Below are positions 52,003 to 55,187 of a DNA stretch of 64,000 bases, piece by piece. The notes beneath the pieces were generated by a model that was not told where the DNA came from, did not search any database, and was given only the letters and a program-made list of their open reading frames with translations. Both the position numbers and the translations under genes were made by a program. Origin of the DNA: Nannocystis pusilla (lineage in GTDB: Bacteria > Myxococcota_A > Polyangia > Nannocystales > Nannocystaceae); assembly GCF_051105105.1 (NCBI RefSeq), contig NZ_CP185339.1; one strand, 5' to 3'. Each line of letters begins with the position of its first letter. The stretch's first letter is position 1.

Positions 52003-52040
52003 CAATGTCTCCGGGGACAGGGTCTAAAGGACATGTCCTG
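52003..52040. repeat. GGGGACAGGG / GGACATGTCC repeat pair
   Basis: The sequence caatgtctccggggacagggtctaaaggacatgtcctg lies in the 22-bp gap between the Prs-like stop and the nadE start. Confidence 0.75.
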
Positions 52041-52971
52041 CGAGGTGAGGCGCGAGGAGGGGGGCGATCGAGGCGACCCGCAGCGGGGTCGGGTCGCCGG
52101 CGCTGGCGGCCGCGAGGGCGCGCGCGCGCGGGTGGCTGTCGGTGCAGGCGATGGCGGAGAACAGGCCGGTGGCCTGCAGCTTGTGCAGGGCGTCGCCGGG
52201 GAAGATGCCGTGGGTGGCGACGGCGGCCAGGCTGACGGCGCCGGCGCGCTGGTAGGCCCGGGCGGCGCCGATCAGCGAGCCGCCGGTGCGGATCATGTCG
52301 TCGTAGAGGATGACCGGCTTGCCGGCGACCTGGGCGTCGATGGCGGTGATCTCGGTGCGCTCGCCGTCGTGGCGGCGCTTGAACACGAAGGCGGCGGTGA
52401 CCCCGAGGTCGTTGGCCAGCGACTCGACCCACTTGGCGCGGCCGGCGTCGGTGCAGGCGAGCACGAACGGCTGGCCGCCGGCGATGTCGAGGATGATGTC
52501 GCGGATCACCGGCTTGGCGTAGACGTGGGTGGCGACCAGGCCGGCCTCGAAGTAGTGCGGGATGCCCTCGGCGTGGAGGTCGAGGAGGAGCACGCGGTTG
52601 CCGTAGGAGGCCGGCGGGATGGCCGAGAACAGCGCGGCGCGGGTCTTGGCGGTGACGACCTCGCCGGGCTTGGTCGAGCGCTCCATCGTCGCGTAGCCGT
52701 AGTAGGGGACGACGAGGGTGAGGCGGCGAGCGCCGTAGTGGACGGCGCCGCAGGCGAGGTCGAACAGGGTGAGCGCGGCGGCGTCGTCGACGGTGCCGCT
52801 GATCAGCACGACGTCGCGGCCCTCGACCGGGGTGACGAGGCGGAGGTAGCGCTCGCCGTCGGGGAAGGCGAAGGTGTCGATCTCGCCGGCCTCCAGCGCG
52901 GCCGAGCCGCACAGCGCGGCCTGCAAGTAGCCGTACTCGGGGGTGGCGAACACGAGCGGGCGGGTCGTCAT
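52024..52971 (-). CDS. Divergent ribose-phosphate pyrophosphokinase (Prs) family protein
   Basis: Prs-like blocks [25 protein letters not shown] and [12 protein letters not shown] are present but clearly diverged from canonical Prs. The ATG overlaps the stop of the upstream IucA/IucC gene (ATGA). Confidence 0.75.
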
Positions 52972-54921
52972 GCGGCGGGGGAAGAGTACCCCTCGGCGAG
53001 CGCGTTGGCGACCTCGGTATAGGCGTAATCGCTGACGCGTTCGTCGATGCGCATGCGCAGCAGCGCCTTGCTGCGGCAGGTGGCCGCGAAGAAGAACGCG
53101 CGATCGTCGGCGCACGCGCGCGCGAGCGCCGGATCGGCGGTCCAGCGGTCCCACTCGCGCTGGCAGATCCGCCGCACCGCGGGCCACAGGACGTTCGGGC
53201 CGGGGCCGCCGGCGTCGTCGACCCAACCGATCACGGCCGCGAGGTGGGCGTGCACGAGGGTGTGCAGCAGCTTGCCCTGGGCCTCGGCGAGGTCGGAGGT
53301 CAAGGTGAAGGAGTCGGGCGCGAGCGCGGGGGCGTGGCCGGCCGCGGCCAGCCGCCCGCGGTGGAGCCGCACGCCGCCGAGGTCGCGGACGACGAAGCCG
53401 CAGGGGCGCCCGGCGTGGACGAGGAGGGTGTTTTGCAGGTGCGCCTCGAGGGCGACGCCGTGGGCGGTGAGCAGGCGCAGGGCCGCGGGGACCAGGAGGT
53501 CGAGGTAATCGTGGAAGAAGGCCGCGAGGCGCGCGCGCGGATCGCCGGGGTAGTCGGCGGCGAGCTCGCGCAGCAAGAGGTCGCCGCCGGGCCGGCGCTC
53601 GCCGAGGGCGGCGCAGACGACGAGCTGCGGGGTGCGCGATGGGACATGTTCGATAGGGAATGTCGCGCGGGACAGGTCCCCGGGGGCATGTTGCAAGGGG
53701 AATGTCTCGGAGGACAGGTCGGAGACGCGGGCGGAGGGGCGCGAGGGCGGCGAGGCGGTCGGACCGGTGAGCGGGCCGGCGAGCGAATTCGGGGCGGTCC
53801 GCGCGGCGCGGGACGGGTCCCCCGGGGCAGGTGCGGCGAGGGTGGCGAAGAGGTCCGCGTGGAGGTCGCGGGCGAGGGCGGCGGGGTCGGGGCGGAGGAC
53901 GACGCCGAGCTGGCCGGCGCTGGGGCCGTGGCGGGGGTGCAGGCCGGCGGCGGCGAGGTCGGGCTGGACCTGCAGGCCGCGGCGGGTGAGCGGATCGGCG
54001 GCCTGGATCGCGGCCAGGAGGGCGGCGATCGGCGGGCCGTTGTGCACCGAGGCGGGCGAGACCTGGCGCCGCGCGCTGGTGGTGTGGATGTCGACGGCCA
54101 GCTTGAGGTGCAGCGCGGGGGCGACGAGGGCGACGGTGCGCAGGCTGAGCAGGGCGCGCGCGTGCAGCGGGGGCAGGCCGGCCGGGCGGACCTCGCGGCC
54201 CCACAGCGGGCCGAGCAGGCGCGGGAGGCGGCGCAGCTGCAGGGCGTGGACGGGCAGGCGGACGAGGCCCGGCGGCGGGGCCGGGAACAGGGCGCGCGCG
54301 AGCTCGGCGTAGACGGTCGGCTCGGCCAGCTGGGCGTGTTCGGCGGCGACGTTCGACGGCGTGGACGGCCGCCTGGGCCAGCAGGTCGGGGCCATGGCGC
54401 AGGTTCTCCCAGGCGCGCAGGCCGAGCCGGGTCTTGCTCATCGGGTGCCACGGGTGGCCGTCGACGACCAGGTTCTCGGGGTCGAGCGGGGCGGGCCACG
54501 GCTGGCCTTTAGAGCATGTCCGATGGCGCAGGTCGGCGGCGACGCGGGCGAGGGCGAGGTTCCAGCGGCTGTCGGCGAGCTCGCCTGCGATCCGGGCGCG
54601 GATGGCGGGGGCGAGCGCGGGCAAGAGGCGCGGGAGGAGGCCGGGGAGGTCGGGGAGGTCGGCGCCGTCGAGGTCGGCGGCGTGCAGCTCGAAGGCCCGG
54701 CGCCGGCGCAGCGGGAGGCTCAAGGAACATGTGCGAAGGGACATGTCCTGGAGGTCGAATTCGACCAGCCGCTCGCGCGCGCAGGCGAGGACGAGGCGGG
54801 CGCCGATCGCCTGGGTCGCGGCCCGCCAGTGGGCGGCGAGCTCGGCGGGCGCCGGCCGGGCGCCGAACGCGACAGGCACGGCCCGGGCGGCGAAGGCGAG
54901 GAAGCGGTCGCGCTCGGACAC
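52968..54921 (-). CDS. IucA/IucC family (NRPS-independent siderophore synthetase-like) protein with a frameshift near 54330 and in-frame palindromic-repeat insertions
   Basis: N-terminal block [17 protein letters not shown] is in one frame. The mid-domain [24 protein letters not shown], the catalytic region [19 protein letters not shown] and the FhuF-like C-terminus are in the adjacent frame. The segment between the SLRT-like and H-Q-N blocks is roughly 75 aa longer than in characterised members, and it contains the 84-bp repeat array. The start is uncertain (GTG about 54921). Confidence 0.6.
53645..53728. repeat. Six 14-bp-phased repeat units (84 bp = 28 codons), in-frame inside the IucA/IucC ORF
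   Basis: Cores at 53645, 53659, 53673, 53687, 53701 and 53715. It translates to [28 protein letters not shown]. Further copies inside the same ORF lie at 54510-54535 and 54720-54750. Confidence 0.8.
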
Positions 54922-54934
54922 GGGCGAAAGGTAG

Positions 54935-55187
54935 CGCGCGGGGCCGGACGACGAAAGCGGCCGGTCCAGCCGGGAGTGGAGCTCGCGCCCGAGTCGTCGC
55001 GCGGGGCCGGACGACGAAAGCGGCCGGTCCAGCCGGGAGTGGAGCTCGCGCCCGAGTCGTCGCGCGGGGCCGGATGACGAAAGCGGCCGGTCCAGCCGGG
55101 AGTGGAGCTCGCGCCCGAGTCGTCGCGCGGGGCCAGGCGCTGCGAGCGGCAGGTCGGGTGAGCCGGTGGAGCTCGTGGCCGAGTGGT
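54935..55187. repeat. Three near-perfect and one degenerate tandem copies of a 63-bp unit
   Basis: The unit gcgcggggccggacgacgaaagcggccggtccagccgggagtggagctcgcgcccgagtcgtc repeats at 54935, 54998 and 55061. A degenerate fourth copy lies at 55124-55187. Confidence 0.8.

Follow-up and report, generated by a model that had tools for sequence, protein, structure and literature searches.

A divergent IucA-like synthetase gene stands upstream of a TME-type Prs gene in Nannocystis and its relatives: a candidate composite operon

The IucA-like protein encoded in a 64,000-nucleotide stretch of the Nannocystis pusilla genome (contig NZ_CP185339.1; hereafter the window) is a full-length, deeply divergent NIS synthetase, and its gene directly precedes a gene for a divergent ribose-phosphate pyrophosphokinase (Prs). 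In Nannocystis and its relatives this pairing is genuine and extends across the family, and the Prs-like protein, far from being an orphan, belongs to a conserved clade that we term TME-type. With modest confidence, we favor reading the locus as a composite operon in which a single insertion placed a divergent NIS gene at the 5' end of what is left of an NAD-salvage operon, the two enzymes being linked by co-expression only.

Table 1 Features of the locus, with coordinates in the window
Feature	Coordinates	Strand	Basis
nadE (glutamine-dependent NAD+ synthetase, 659 aa)	50022..52001	-	Pfam CN_hydrolase + NAD_synthase; NCBIfam NAD+ synthase models
prs-nadE spacer and prs 3' end	52002..52040	-	dispersed GGACATGTCC element, three units of 14 nt
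Prs-like gene (315 aa)	52024..52971	-	TIGR01251 match; TME-type ribose-phosphate diphosphokinase clade
ATGA stop/start overlap of the IucA-like and Prs-like genes	52968..52971	-	read from sequence
IucA/IucC-like gene, 3' part	52968..54353	-	IucA_IucC profile positions 75-238 + FhuF-like C-terminal domain
Two 42-nt GGACATGTYC-type units, in-frame insertion in the IucA-like gene	53641..53720	-	1.9 copies with a 42-nt period (Tandem Repeats Finder)
Frameshift site, one extra A (GTCGAACGTC)	54352..54353	-	comparison with relatives
IucA/IucC-like gene, 5' part	54352..54921	-	Pfam IucA_IucC positions 6-47; putative GTG start at 54921
Tandem array, five 63-64-nt copies, TauE-IucA spacer	54913..55225	.	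three near-perfect, two degenerate
TauE/SafE-family membrane protein gene	55218..55925	-	PF01925, E 3e-34

The gene junctions were as a preliminary description of this DNA had read them. On the minus strand, a single ATGA joins the two genes, its TGA (52970-52968) being the stop of the ORF with the IucA_IucC and FhuF domains and its ATG (52971-52969) the start of the Prs-like gene; nadE, the final gene of this tight cluster, has its ATG at 52001, after a 22-nt spacer (52023-52002). Both the −4 overlap and the 22-nt spacer recur in six other Nannocystis genomes. The dispersed GGACATGTCC element has a match at 52029-52038. A 1358-aa ORF at 52024-56100 was rejected as a gene and represents a high-GC read-through artefact. 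By tblastn, no pncB, nrtR, or pncA was found in the 64-kb window, and of the NAD-salvage operon genes beside prs, nadE alone is kept.

The IucA-like gene, previously taken to be one ORF, proved to be broken by the extra A into two frames (54921-54352 and 54353-52968). The window reads GTCGAAC where all seven of seven related Nannocystis genomes read GTCGAC. The two halves aligned to relatives in frames −2 and −3 (residues 190-628 in −3 by tblastn), and the 5' part, which encodes a 13-letter protein motif, was 81-95% identical to the relatives' N termini. Removing one A gave a clean 650-codon ORF with no other stops or indels and a dN/dS of 0.33-0.49, within the nadE range. We conclude that the 1-nt insertion seen here reflects an error in the assembly or else an inactivation of very recent date. 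It is possible, though on balance doubtful, that the gene is a true pseudogene in this strain and the pair nonfunctional here. The seven relatives lack the insertion, and at least seven other genes in the 15-kb syntenic block read intact, which shows no general tendency to indel errors in this part of the assembly; against a pseudogene stand the lack of any second lesion in the repaired ORF, its dN/dS comparable to that of nadE, and the similar, error-like single frameshifts in prs and nadE of a long-read Nannocystis assembly (L043).

Assignment of the IucA-like protein to the NIS synthetases drew on profiles, motifs, and structure. IucA_IucC (PF04183) matched in two frames with 80.6 and 32.2 bits (cut-off 25) and the FhuF-like C-terminal domain (PF06276) with 92.2 bits (cut-off 25.2), the E-values in the 3' part being 1.7e-22 and 6.6e-26; intact relatives contain both domains. 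Four motifs (GHPWHP..R, K..TTS.R..S, E.H.QN, and RDLGG.R) were invariant or nearly so in 118 family members, and alignment to AsbB and AcsD confirmed the nucleotide/Mg-binding motifs (HPxHP..K.R; K...T(S/T).R; ExHxQN; RD). The AlphaFold model of the ortholog P0131 (pLDDT 91.3, pTM 0.91) has the full-length NIS three-domain fold; its best 50 Foldseek matches included no protein other than NIS enzymes (lowest E 2.5e-24), and its TM scores were 0.6-0.76 against AsbB, DesD, AcsD, and IucA. The insertion made of 42-nt units is predicted to encode a disordered loop, the matching P0131 residues 376-406 being modeled at pLDDT <50. Divergence was equally evident: identity to solved NIS structures was 15-18%, and the protein fell under the cut-off of every NCBIfam NIS model, the best being FslA NF041038 (74-86 bits versus 1000). 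The family comprises ~200 members, all from Nannocystaceae or Myxococcales MAGs. The enzyme is probably an active ATP-dependent ligase that would convert a carboxylate to an acyl-adenylate and then join it to an amine; our default guess for its product would be a citrate-type chelator. Siderophore precursor, receptor, export/uptake, or second NIS genes were absent within ±10 kb in N. radixulma and N. pusilla, and the sole exporter-type gene near the IucA-like gene was TauE, a neighbor that is lost outside the genus.

The Prs-like protein is, as had been proposed, clearly diverged from canonical Prs. It scored 173.6 bits with TIGR01251 (cut-off 113) and reached none of the Prs equivalog models, the best being PRK00934 (154.8 bits versus 296) with others further below. 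The clade has Y(A/S)TMER in place of canonical YARQDR (YATMER in the window protein), with TME seen in at least 67 of 80 members, and the C-terminal tail, the allosteric segment of class I enzymes, is absent. FxDGE, DLH, KRR, and DDMIxTGG are retained, and the catalytic and R5P-loop columns (F36, G39, E40, D131, H133, K198, R200, D224, and D225) are invariant. In Prs structures the replaced RQ residues belong to the flexible ATP-binding loop, and the reaction could therefore differ from PRPP synthesis. Orthologs from 80 genomes of Myxococcota, Bacteroidota, and Acidobacteriota were 53-99% identical. The enzyme is probably a PRPP synthase, and in pncB-type operons it would feed PRPP to PncB, probably under transcriptional control rather than control by ADP.

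We surveyed gene neighborhoods at 80 species-level Prs-like loci. Directly upstream of prs stood pncB in 28 loci, an IucA-like gene in 19, and both in none. The pncB-linked loci were often ordered pncB-prs-nadE-nrtR-pncA, with a 4-nt overlap at the pncB-prs junction in half of them (14/28), and nadE followed prs in most of these as well as in 14 of the 19 IucA-linked loci; nadE, which the preliminary description had treated as a bystander, is thus an informative neighbor. The pncB genes beat their equivalog cut-offs (NF006695, 538 versus 469 bits; TIGR01513, 525 versus 297), NrtR was recognized, and a Pfam-annotated example locus showed NAPRTase-Prs-NrtR with an isochorismatase (PncA) close by. 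The window Prs was 57-61% identical to orthologs in pncB-prs-nadE-nrtR-pncA operons and fell in the same tree clade. In a protein search with a Sandaracinus-type PncB, the matches listed (~58% identity or more) came from other phyla and MAGs only.

IucA-linked Prs genes form one Nannocystaceae clade on the Prs tree, with two nested losses (L020 and L017), while pncB-linked Prs genes are scattered over the remainder. The pair has a single origin and is retained in 19 of ~21 clade members. The earlier proposal had allowed that the gene might be the genome's only prs and might adjoin IucA/IucC genes nowhere else; the adjacency is conserved well beyond the window genome, so this combination does not hold. 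Across family-level divergence, over which IucA identity drops to ~43%, 18 of the 19 loci kept an IucA-Prs junction of −4 to 162 nt, and in four genomes (L021, L023, L025, and L031) Prs is still found with IucA though NadE is gone. Each family also occurs without the other, contrary to the idea of a dedicated pairing: Prs lacked an IucA-like gene in 61 of 80 loci, and distant IucA-like homologs in Enhygromyxa-type genomes stand alone, with no Prs gene nearby, and group in a clade of their own. No third partner gene recurred consistently upstream of IucA in distant Nannocystaceae loci. The neighbors observed there were a TetR-like sequence (identified by eye), an epimerase/DUF1731 protein, and uncharacterized proteins.

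Upstream of the IucA-like gene, the preliminary description had placed a 63-bp repeat array and a TauE/SafE gene. Both are present, but the array is missing from N. exedens and the TauE link is restricted to near-genus relatives. Tandem Repeats Finder reported a period of 63 nt and 3.2 copies with 99% matches at 54935-55134; all five copies are in register, the two degenerate ones are ~80% identical, and the last of the five reaches into the 3' end of TauE. In the related strain L008 the array comprises three degenerate copies; it is a strain-variable repeat. Only in Nannocystis-level relatives does TauE precede IucA, with three extra genes between them in the N. pusilla compared. The TauE-IucA spacer gave no structure signal, as its fold scored z = +0.99 against shuffles, and an Rfam scan of 49000-57000 (E up to 1) returned no NAD riboswitch and no match in the array, its lone hit being a sub-threshold sRNA match within nadE. 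From tauE to the end of nadE, a scan detected neither a promoter-like site nor any terminator-like site between genes; the lone terminator-like match fell inside the IucA coding sequence, and shuffled sequence yielded such matches just as often.

We favor a composite operon, (tauE)-iucX-prs-nadE, as the explanation of the locus. Its prs-nadE portion would be the remnant of the widespread nicotinate (Preiss-Handler) operon pncB-prs-nadE-nrtR-pncA, in which NadE is expected to amidate NaAD to NAD. The NIS gene would have taken the slot upstream of prs that pncB holds elsewhere in the common ancestor of a single Nannocystaceae clade, and the arrangement would have been inherited since, with the 4-nt stop/start overlap in the genus Nannocystis. 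The genes are probably co-transcribed, and the NIS enzyme appears to be chemically independent of Prs, so that coupling would amount to co-expression. Several observations lead to this explanation: pncB and IucA-like genes exclude each other in the upstream slot with NadE mostly following; IucA-linked Prs genes fall in one clade while distant IucA-like homologs stand alone; the NIS fold and motifs are complete, and Prs keeps its catalytic residues with RQD changed to TME and its tail lost; and neither promoter-like nor intergenic terminator-like sites interrupt the stretch from tauE to nadE. It also agrees with the prs paralogs reported in NrtR-regulated NAD operons (Rodionov et al. 2008, PMC2330246). 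Counting against the composite operon are the tight IucA-Prs spacing over family-level divergence, the retention of Prs with IucA after loss of NadE, which pure chance adjacency does not predict, the chance that a TME-type Prs catalyzes a reaction other than PRPP synthesis, and the lack of siderophore-type partner or receptor genes at the locus.

An alternative is that the IucA-like ligase works with the TME-type Prs in a single pathway, giving a new metabolite or a pyridine-nucleotide function; we consider this unlikely. In its pyridine version, the ligase would adenylate a nicotinate- or quinolinate-like carboxylate and assume pncB's operon role. NIS enzymes and NadE are both carboxylate-adenylating, the ligase gene sits exactly in the pncB slot with the 4-nt overlap recreated, and the pair arose once, was kept by nearly all of its clade, and persists in the four genomes without NadE. 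However, both families occur independently, no fused IucA-Prs proteins were found among homologs when protein lengths were compared, and no third partner gene is conserved; moreover, the bonds that NIS chemistry makes are amide and ester rather than N-glycosidic, and an NIS enzyme therefore cannot directly replace PncB. A shared pathway received no positive support. A version in which the NIS ligase of Nannocystaceae has functionally assumed the first position of the NAD-salvage operon and, with TME-type Prs (and NadE where present), carries out a new ATP-dependent step in the synthesis of pyridine nucleotides or ribosyl metabolites strikes us as highly improbable; an example would be a pyridine carboxylate that is adenylated and amidated and feeds a PRPP-dependent reaction. 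The earlier suggestion that Prs is a dedicated NIS partner in a phosphoribosylated amide pathway was likewise not supported; the Prs clade is typical of nicotinate-salvage operons (28/80).

Could the Prs-like gene simply be the cell's only, housekeeping PRPP synthase, with incidental neighbors? It passes TIGR01251 with all catalytic residues kept, no second or canonical prs was found in the 64-kb window or in 93 fetched loci, and 33 of the 80 loci place the clade in unrelated or varied contexts. We nonetheless judge this quite unlikely. The usual prs synteny is with ispE/ctc/pth, which the Prs-like gene apparently does not share; it lies on a very long branch with ~30% identity to E. coli Prs; and pncB, nadE, or nrtR adjoins prs in 31 of the 61 IucA-free loci (28 with pncB upstream, 3 with nadE/nrtR only), just as nadE follows in most IucA-linked ones. 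The clade also extends to Bacteroidota, and two prs paralogs are reported in species whose prs is NrtR-linked (Rodionov et al. 2008, PMC2330246).

Least probable of all, to the point that we rejected this identity on clade, motif, and partner, is that the Prs-like protein acts as an ADP-ribose pyrophosphokinase, as does phage Adps of the NARP1 pathway, a homolog of Prs once annotated under that name (Osterman et al. 2024 preprint, 10.1101/2024.02.11.579819): related operons do contain the ADPR-sensing regulator NrtR and have nadE without nadD, but Adps belongs to another clade at 23-30% identity, is N-terminally shorter, and keeps YARQDR, related operons pair prs with an equivalog-level PncB rather than a Nampt-like Namat, and the Nampt-like genes that adjoin or lie near phage Adps genes are absent from the 64-kb window, as is any transferase partner.

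If the composite operon is held together by co-expression only, it represents a gene displacement at a translationally coupled operon junction that has persisted across a bacterial family; if coupling is biochemical, NIS chemistry would extend past siderophores into nucleotide and cofactor metabolism. Two uncharacterized groups merit assay in either case, namely the TME-type Prs clade, found in several hundred species-level genomes within nicotinate-salvage operons, and the Nannocystaceae-specific NIS clade, so distant from solved NIS enzymes.

Compared with known systems, the IucA-like protein shares both Pfam domains, the fold, and the ATP/Mg motifs with the NIS synthetases AsbB, AcsD, IucA/IucC, DesD, and AlcC, whereas its gene lacks their precursor, receptor, and second NIS genes and is embedded among NAD genes. 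NIS enzymes had been described as normally partnering with decarboxylases, monooxygenases, or acyltransferases; this is not absolute, as the rhizoferrin synthetases FslA and LbtA are stand-alone NIS enzymes using primary metabolites. The locus resembles theirs in having a single NIS enzyme, a membrane exporter-type gene nearby, and no tailoring genes, but its exporter is TauE/SafE rather than MFS, with an adjacency not conserved past the genus, and FslA, although the best NCBIfam match, is a weak one. The Prs-like protein is like class III (archaeal-type) PRPP synthases in its best equivalog match and missing allosteric segment, but it scores far under that cut-off, and its clade is bacterial and carries the TME substitution. 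In the Adps-Namat pair of phage NARP1 (10.1101/2024.02.11.579819), as at this locus, the coding of a Prs homolog is tightly coupled to that of another enzyme in an NAD setting. Rodionov et al. 2008 (PMC2330246) also described pncA-pncB-nadE operons and, in species with two prs genes, prs-nadV operons; the present clade partners PncB, not NadV. The NrtR-type NAD-salvage operons of the same study likewise join a Prs paralog to NAD-salvage genes; the window and its IucA-linked clade differ in lacking pncB, nrtR, and pncA and in carrying the NIS gene in the pncB position.

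The preliminary description placed a synthetase gene in ATGA overlap with a Prs-like gene, nadE 22 nt further on and a TauE gene upstream, and we could confirm each of these, the overlap lying at 52971-52968. The window (GC 70-77%) derives from a Nannocystis strain. Its Prs-like protein shares 99% identity with the protein from Nannocystis sp. RBIL2, 97% with the one from N. exedens and 92-94% with those of N. pusilla and N. radixulma, and the window reaches at most about 96.7% nucleotide identity to any locus fetched from related genomes (L-numbers below).

Features of the locus and of a dispersed palindromic element in the window
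Feature	Position	Strand	Remark
tauE	55925-55218	minus	first gene in order, then the 63-nt array
63-nt array	54913-55225		five in-register copies
IucA/IucC-plus-FhuF gene (iucX, IucA-like gene)	54921-52968	minus	3' of the 63-nt array
Prs-like gene (prs)	52971-52024	minus	follows iucX
nadE	52001-50022	minus	follows prs
pcm	49819-49118	minus	follows nadE
GGACATGTCC element, examples	14732-14783, 18721-18758, 21707-21772, 36348-36468, 60871-60920		
GGACATGTCC element, within the IucA-prs-nadE finding	52029-52038, 53641-53720, 54739-54748		

What had been overlooked is that the synthetase gene is not a single open reading frame: its N-terminal 190 codons, which include a 13-residue motif, lie in another frame than the remainder. 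The window reads GTCGAAC, whereas seven of seven related Nannocystis genomes read GTCGAC, and deletion of one A yields a 650-codon ORF otherwise free of defects. The repaired gene has a dN/dS of 0.33-0.49 against three relatives, comparable to nadE (0.30-0.44), and the remaining genes of the 15-kb syntenic block are intact. Given this clean repair, the nadE-like dN/dS and the intact neighbors, the lesion is either one isolated error in the assembly or a mutation that arose very recently. In the sequence as it stands, the shifted N-terminal portion of IucA would read on in the prs frame to the prs stop codon. A 1358-codon stop-free frame (52024-56100, minus) that takes in tauE, the spacer, iucX and prs was rejected as a high-GC read-through artefact. 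In the long-read assembly of N. pusilla Na p29 (L043, 10001-12942), prs and nadE both seem to be split by frameshifts, suggesting that single-base indel errors of the kind relevant to the window occur in Nannocystis assemblies.

The 63-nt tandem repeat was present, but its length had been understated. Three copies are near-perfect and two about 80% identical, the outermost overlapping the 3' end of TauE; RBIL2 has three degenerate copies and N. exedens none. The array folds no better than shuffled sequence and matched no RNA family, and it has the look of a tandemly duplicated TauE 3' end with the spacer downstream, rather than of a conserved regulatory element. Only in Nannocystis-level relatives is tauE found 5' of the IucA-like gene, and N. 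pusilla and N. punicea carry extra genes between the two. In N. pusilla (L002, 5908-8202; also L010 and L043) these are three, encoding a 379-aa AAA_16 ATPase and proteins of 180 and 207 aa; N. punicea has a comparable insertion (ORF calls only). The extra genes are absent from the window and from N. radixulma and N. exedens.

A palindromic element, GGACATGTCC with its variants, is dispersed through the window (35 matches at no more than one mismatch versus 1.6 expected), usually arrayed at a 14-nt period straight after stop codons and also in-frame within coding sequence. Within the IucA-like gene the copies (peptide DMSLQTCSL) are conserved in N. radixulma and N. pusilla but missing from a 65%-identity relative, and one falls in a predicted disordered loop of the structure model. 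The element may be of REP or MITE type, or its copies may be sites for a regulator.

The Prs-like protein exceeds the TIGR01251 cut-off (173.6 bits versus 113), passes none of the equivalog-level Prs models and is ~30% identical to Prs structures from E. coli, human and archaea. In the alignment it keeps the catalytic and ribose-5-phosphate-loop residues (FxDGE, DLH, KRR, DDMIxTGG), has a 4-residue insertion and lacks the C-terminal segment, the allosteric control element of class I enzymes. Y(A/S)TMER stands where canonical Prs has YARQDR, a motif that in Prs structures is part of the ATP-binding flexible loop. Scan patterns including YYGYATME matched >600 stretches in species-representative genomes, 529 of them confirmed as relatives. 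We fetched the 80 best Prs loci (53-99% identity; Myxococcota, Bacteroidota, Acidobacteriota and others) and placed reference proteins in them by tblastn; at least 67 have TME, and the signature is common to the whole clade (TME-type Prs).

The IucA-like gene is intact in relatives (599-601 aa). Both Pfam domains were found in its product, whose hallmark motifs can be aligned with those of AsbB and AcsD and are invariant in 118 family members. Its AlphaFold model, a confident one (pLDDT 91.3), matched NIS synthetases and nothing else in the PDB (TM 0.6-0.76, 15-18% identity). The protein is a genuine, very divergent NIS synthetase; the identities of both genes are shown, and both active sites are conserved. 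When 5.8 billion proteins were searched by word index, only 197 relatives emerged, and the named matches among the 120 listed were all Nannocystaceae (Nannocystis, Enhygromyxa, Pseudenhygromyxa) or an unclassified Myxococcales MAG; many of them lie on contigs equal in length to those of Prs matches, a sign that the contigs are the same. Of the more distant members, four were looked up (43-45% identity); none has a Prs within 7 kb and all are stand-alone genes, three of them in a conserved context beside Tubulin_2-domain proteins, and a neighbor-joining tree sets stand-alone members in a clade apart from Prs-linked ones. In three Enhygromyxa-type loci (L091, L092, L093; IucA-like gene at 7001) the block comprises a protein of about 220 aa upstream and, downstream (8.9-14.8 kb in the loci), a ~1070-aa Tubulin_2 (PF13809) protein together with one unannotated protein or two (about 825 aa at two of the loci). 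At another stand-alone locus (L090, 12177-15734), a spermine/spermidine synthase, a PepSY_TM protein and a TonB-dependent receptor lie within 6 kb, the one observed pointer to an iron- or polyamine-related setting in the family.

Two genes occupy the slot directly 5' of prs in a mutually exclusive manner. pncB (nicotinate phosphoribosyltransferase) is there in 28 of the 80 loci, usually in the order pncB-prs-nadE-nrtR-pncA and with a 4-nt overlap onto prs in half of them (14/28); it exceeds equivalog cut-offs (NF006695, 538 bits versus 469; TIGR01513, 525 versus 297). The IucA-like gene is there in 19, all Nannocystaceae; its conserved pairing with prs is real but limited to one lineage. The other 33 have Nudix, purine/uridine phosphorylase family, PfkB kinase or unrelated genes, and in none of the 80 do pncB and the IucA-like gene occur together.

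In a Prs tree rooted on E. coli Prs, all of the IucA-linked genes form one clade, giving the pairing a single origin, and pncB-linked genes are scattered over the rest. Two loci without IucA (L020 and L017) nest within that clade; L020 retains upstream synteny with the IucA-bearing L022 and L024, so its lack of IucA fits secondary loss. The most economical history has pncB-prs(-nadE-nrtR-pncA) as the ancestral state, the NIS gene arriving directly 5' of prs in the ancestor of one Nannocystaceae lineage, and pncB, nrtR and pncA leaving the locus there.

We lean, with modest confidence, towards a composite operon in which NIS enzyme and Prs have no chemical dependence. TME-type Prs would make PRPP for salvage, its control probably transcriptional and not allosteric, and the NIS enzyme is a predicted ATP-dependent carboxylate-amine ligase. 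A promoter and terminator scan weakly suggests that iucX-prs-nadE is transcribed together: it found no promoter-like or intergenic terminator-like site among these genes, its only terminator-like match lying within IucA coding sequence. Nannochelins, citrate-hydroxamate siderophores, are attributed to Nannocystis exedens in PMC9989332, citing Kunze 1992, so NIS chemistry is expected in the genus; this locus, however, contains no IucB/IucD-type or receptor gene and no second NIS gene. Genuine coupling of ligase and Prs in one pathway seems unlikely to us. The IucA-Prs junction measures -4 nt in six Nannocystis genomes and 2-162 nt in a further twelve loci, and 1.5 kb interrupts it in one. nadE is 3' of prs in 14 of these 19 loci, and in four genomes the IucA-Prs pair remains although NadE has gone. 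That the tight junction has persisted, and the pair too after nadE loss, argues for some selective link. A dedicated Prs partner in a new 'phosphoribosylated amide' pathway, as first proposed, gained no positive support; a better-supported account has the NIS gene displacing pncB as the first gene of what remains of an NAD-salvage operon. An ADP-ribose pyrophosphokinase role like that of Adps, the Prs homolog of the phage NARP1 NAD pathway, is unlikely because Adps retains RQDR, is only 23-30% identical and partners a Nampt-like Namat, whereas related operons have equivalog-level PncB and the window wholly lacks a Namat/PncB-type partner.

Treatment of nadE as an incidental neighbor is contradicted by the pncB-prs-nadE-nrtR-pncA loci. 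This operon is widespread (L027, L040, L048, L049, L057, L061, L062, L074, L078, L084; Prs at about 10001), with nadE present, nadD absent and the ADP-ribose-sensing regulator NrtR carried. It is conceivable, and purely speculative given that the PncB genes exceed equivalog cut-offs, that it is a deamidated NARP1 analogue (ADPR-PP + nicotinate -> NaAD, then NadE). Published NrtR-regulated NAD operons include prs paralogs, with two in species having prs-nadV operons, and pncA-pncB-nadE operons are listed (Rodionov et al. 2008, PMC2330246). From the neighborhood counts and this published picture, nadE appears to be the ancestral partner of TME-type prs, whose neighborhoods agree with the NrtR-regulated NAD operons already described.
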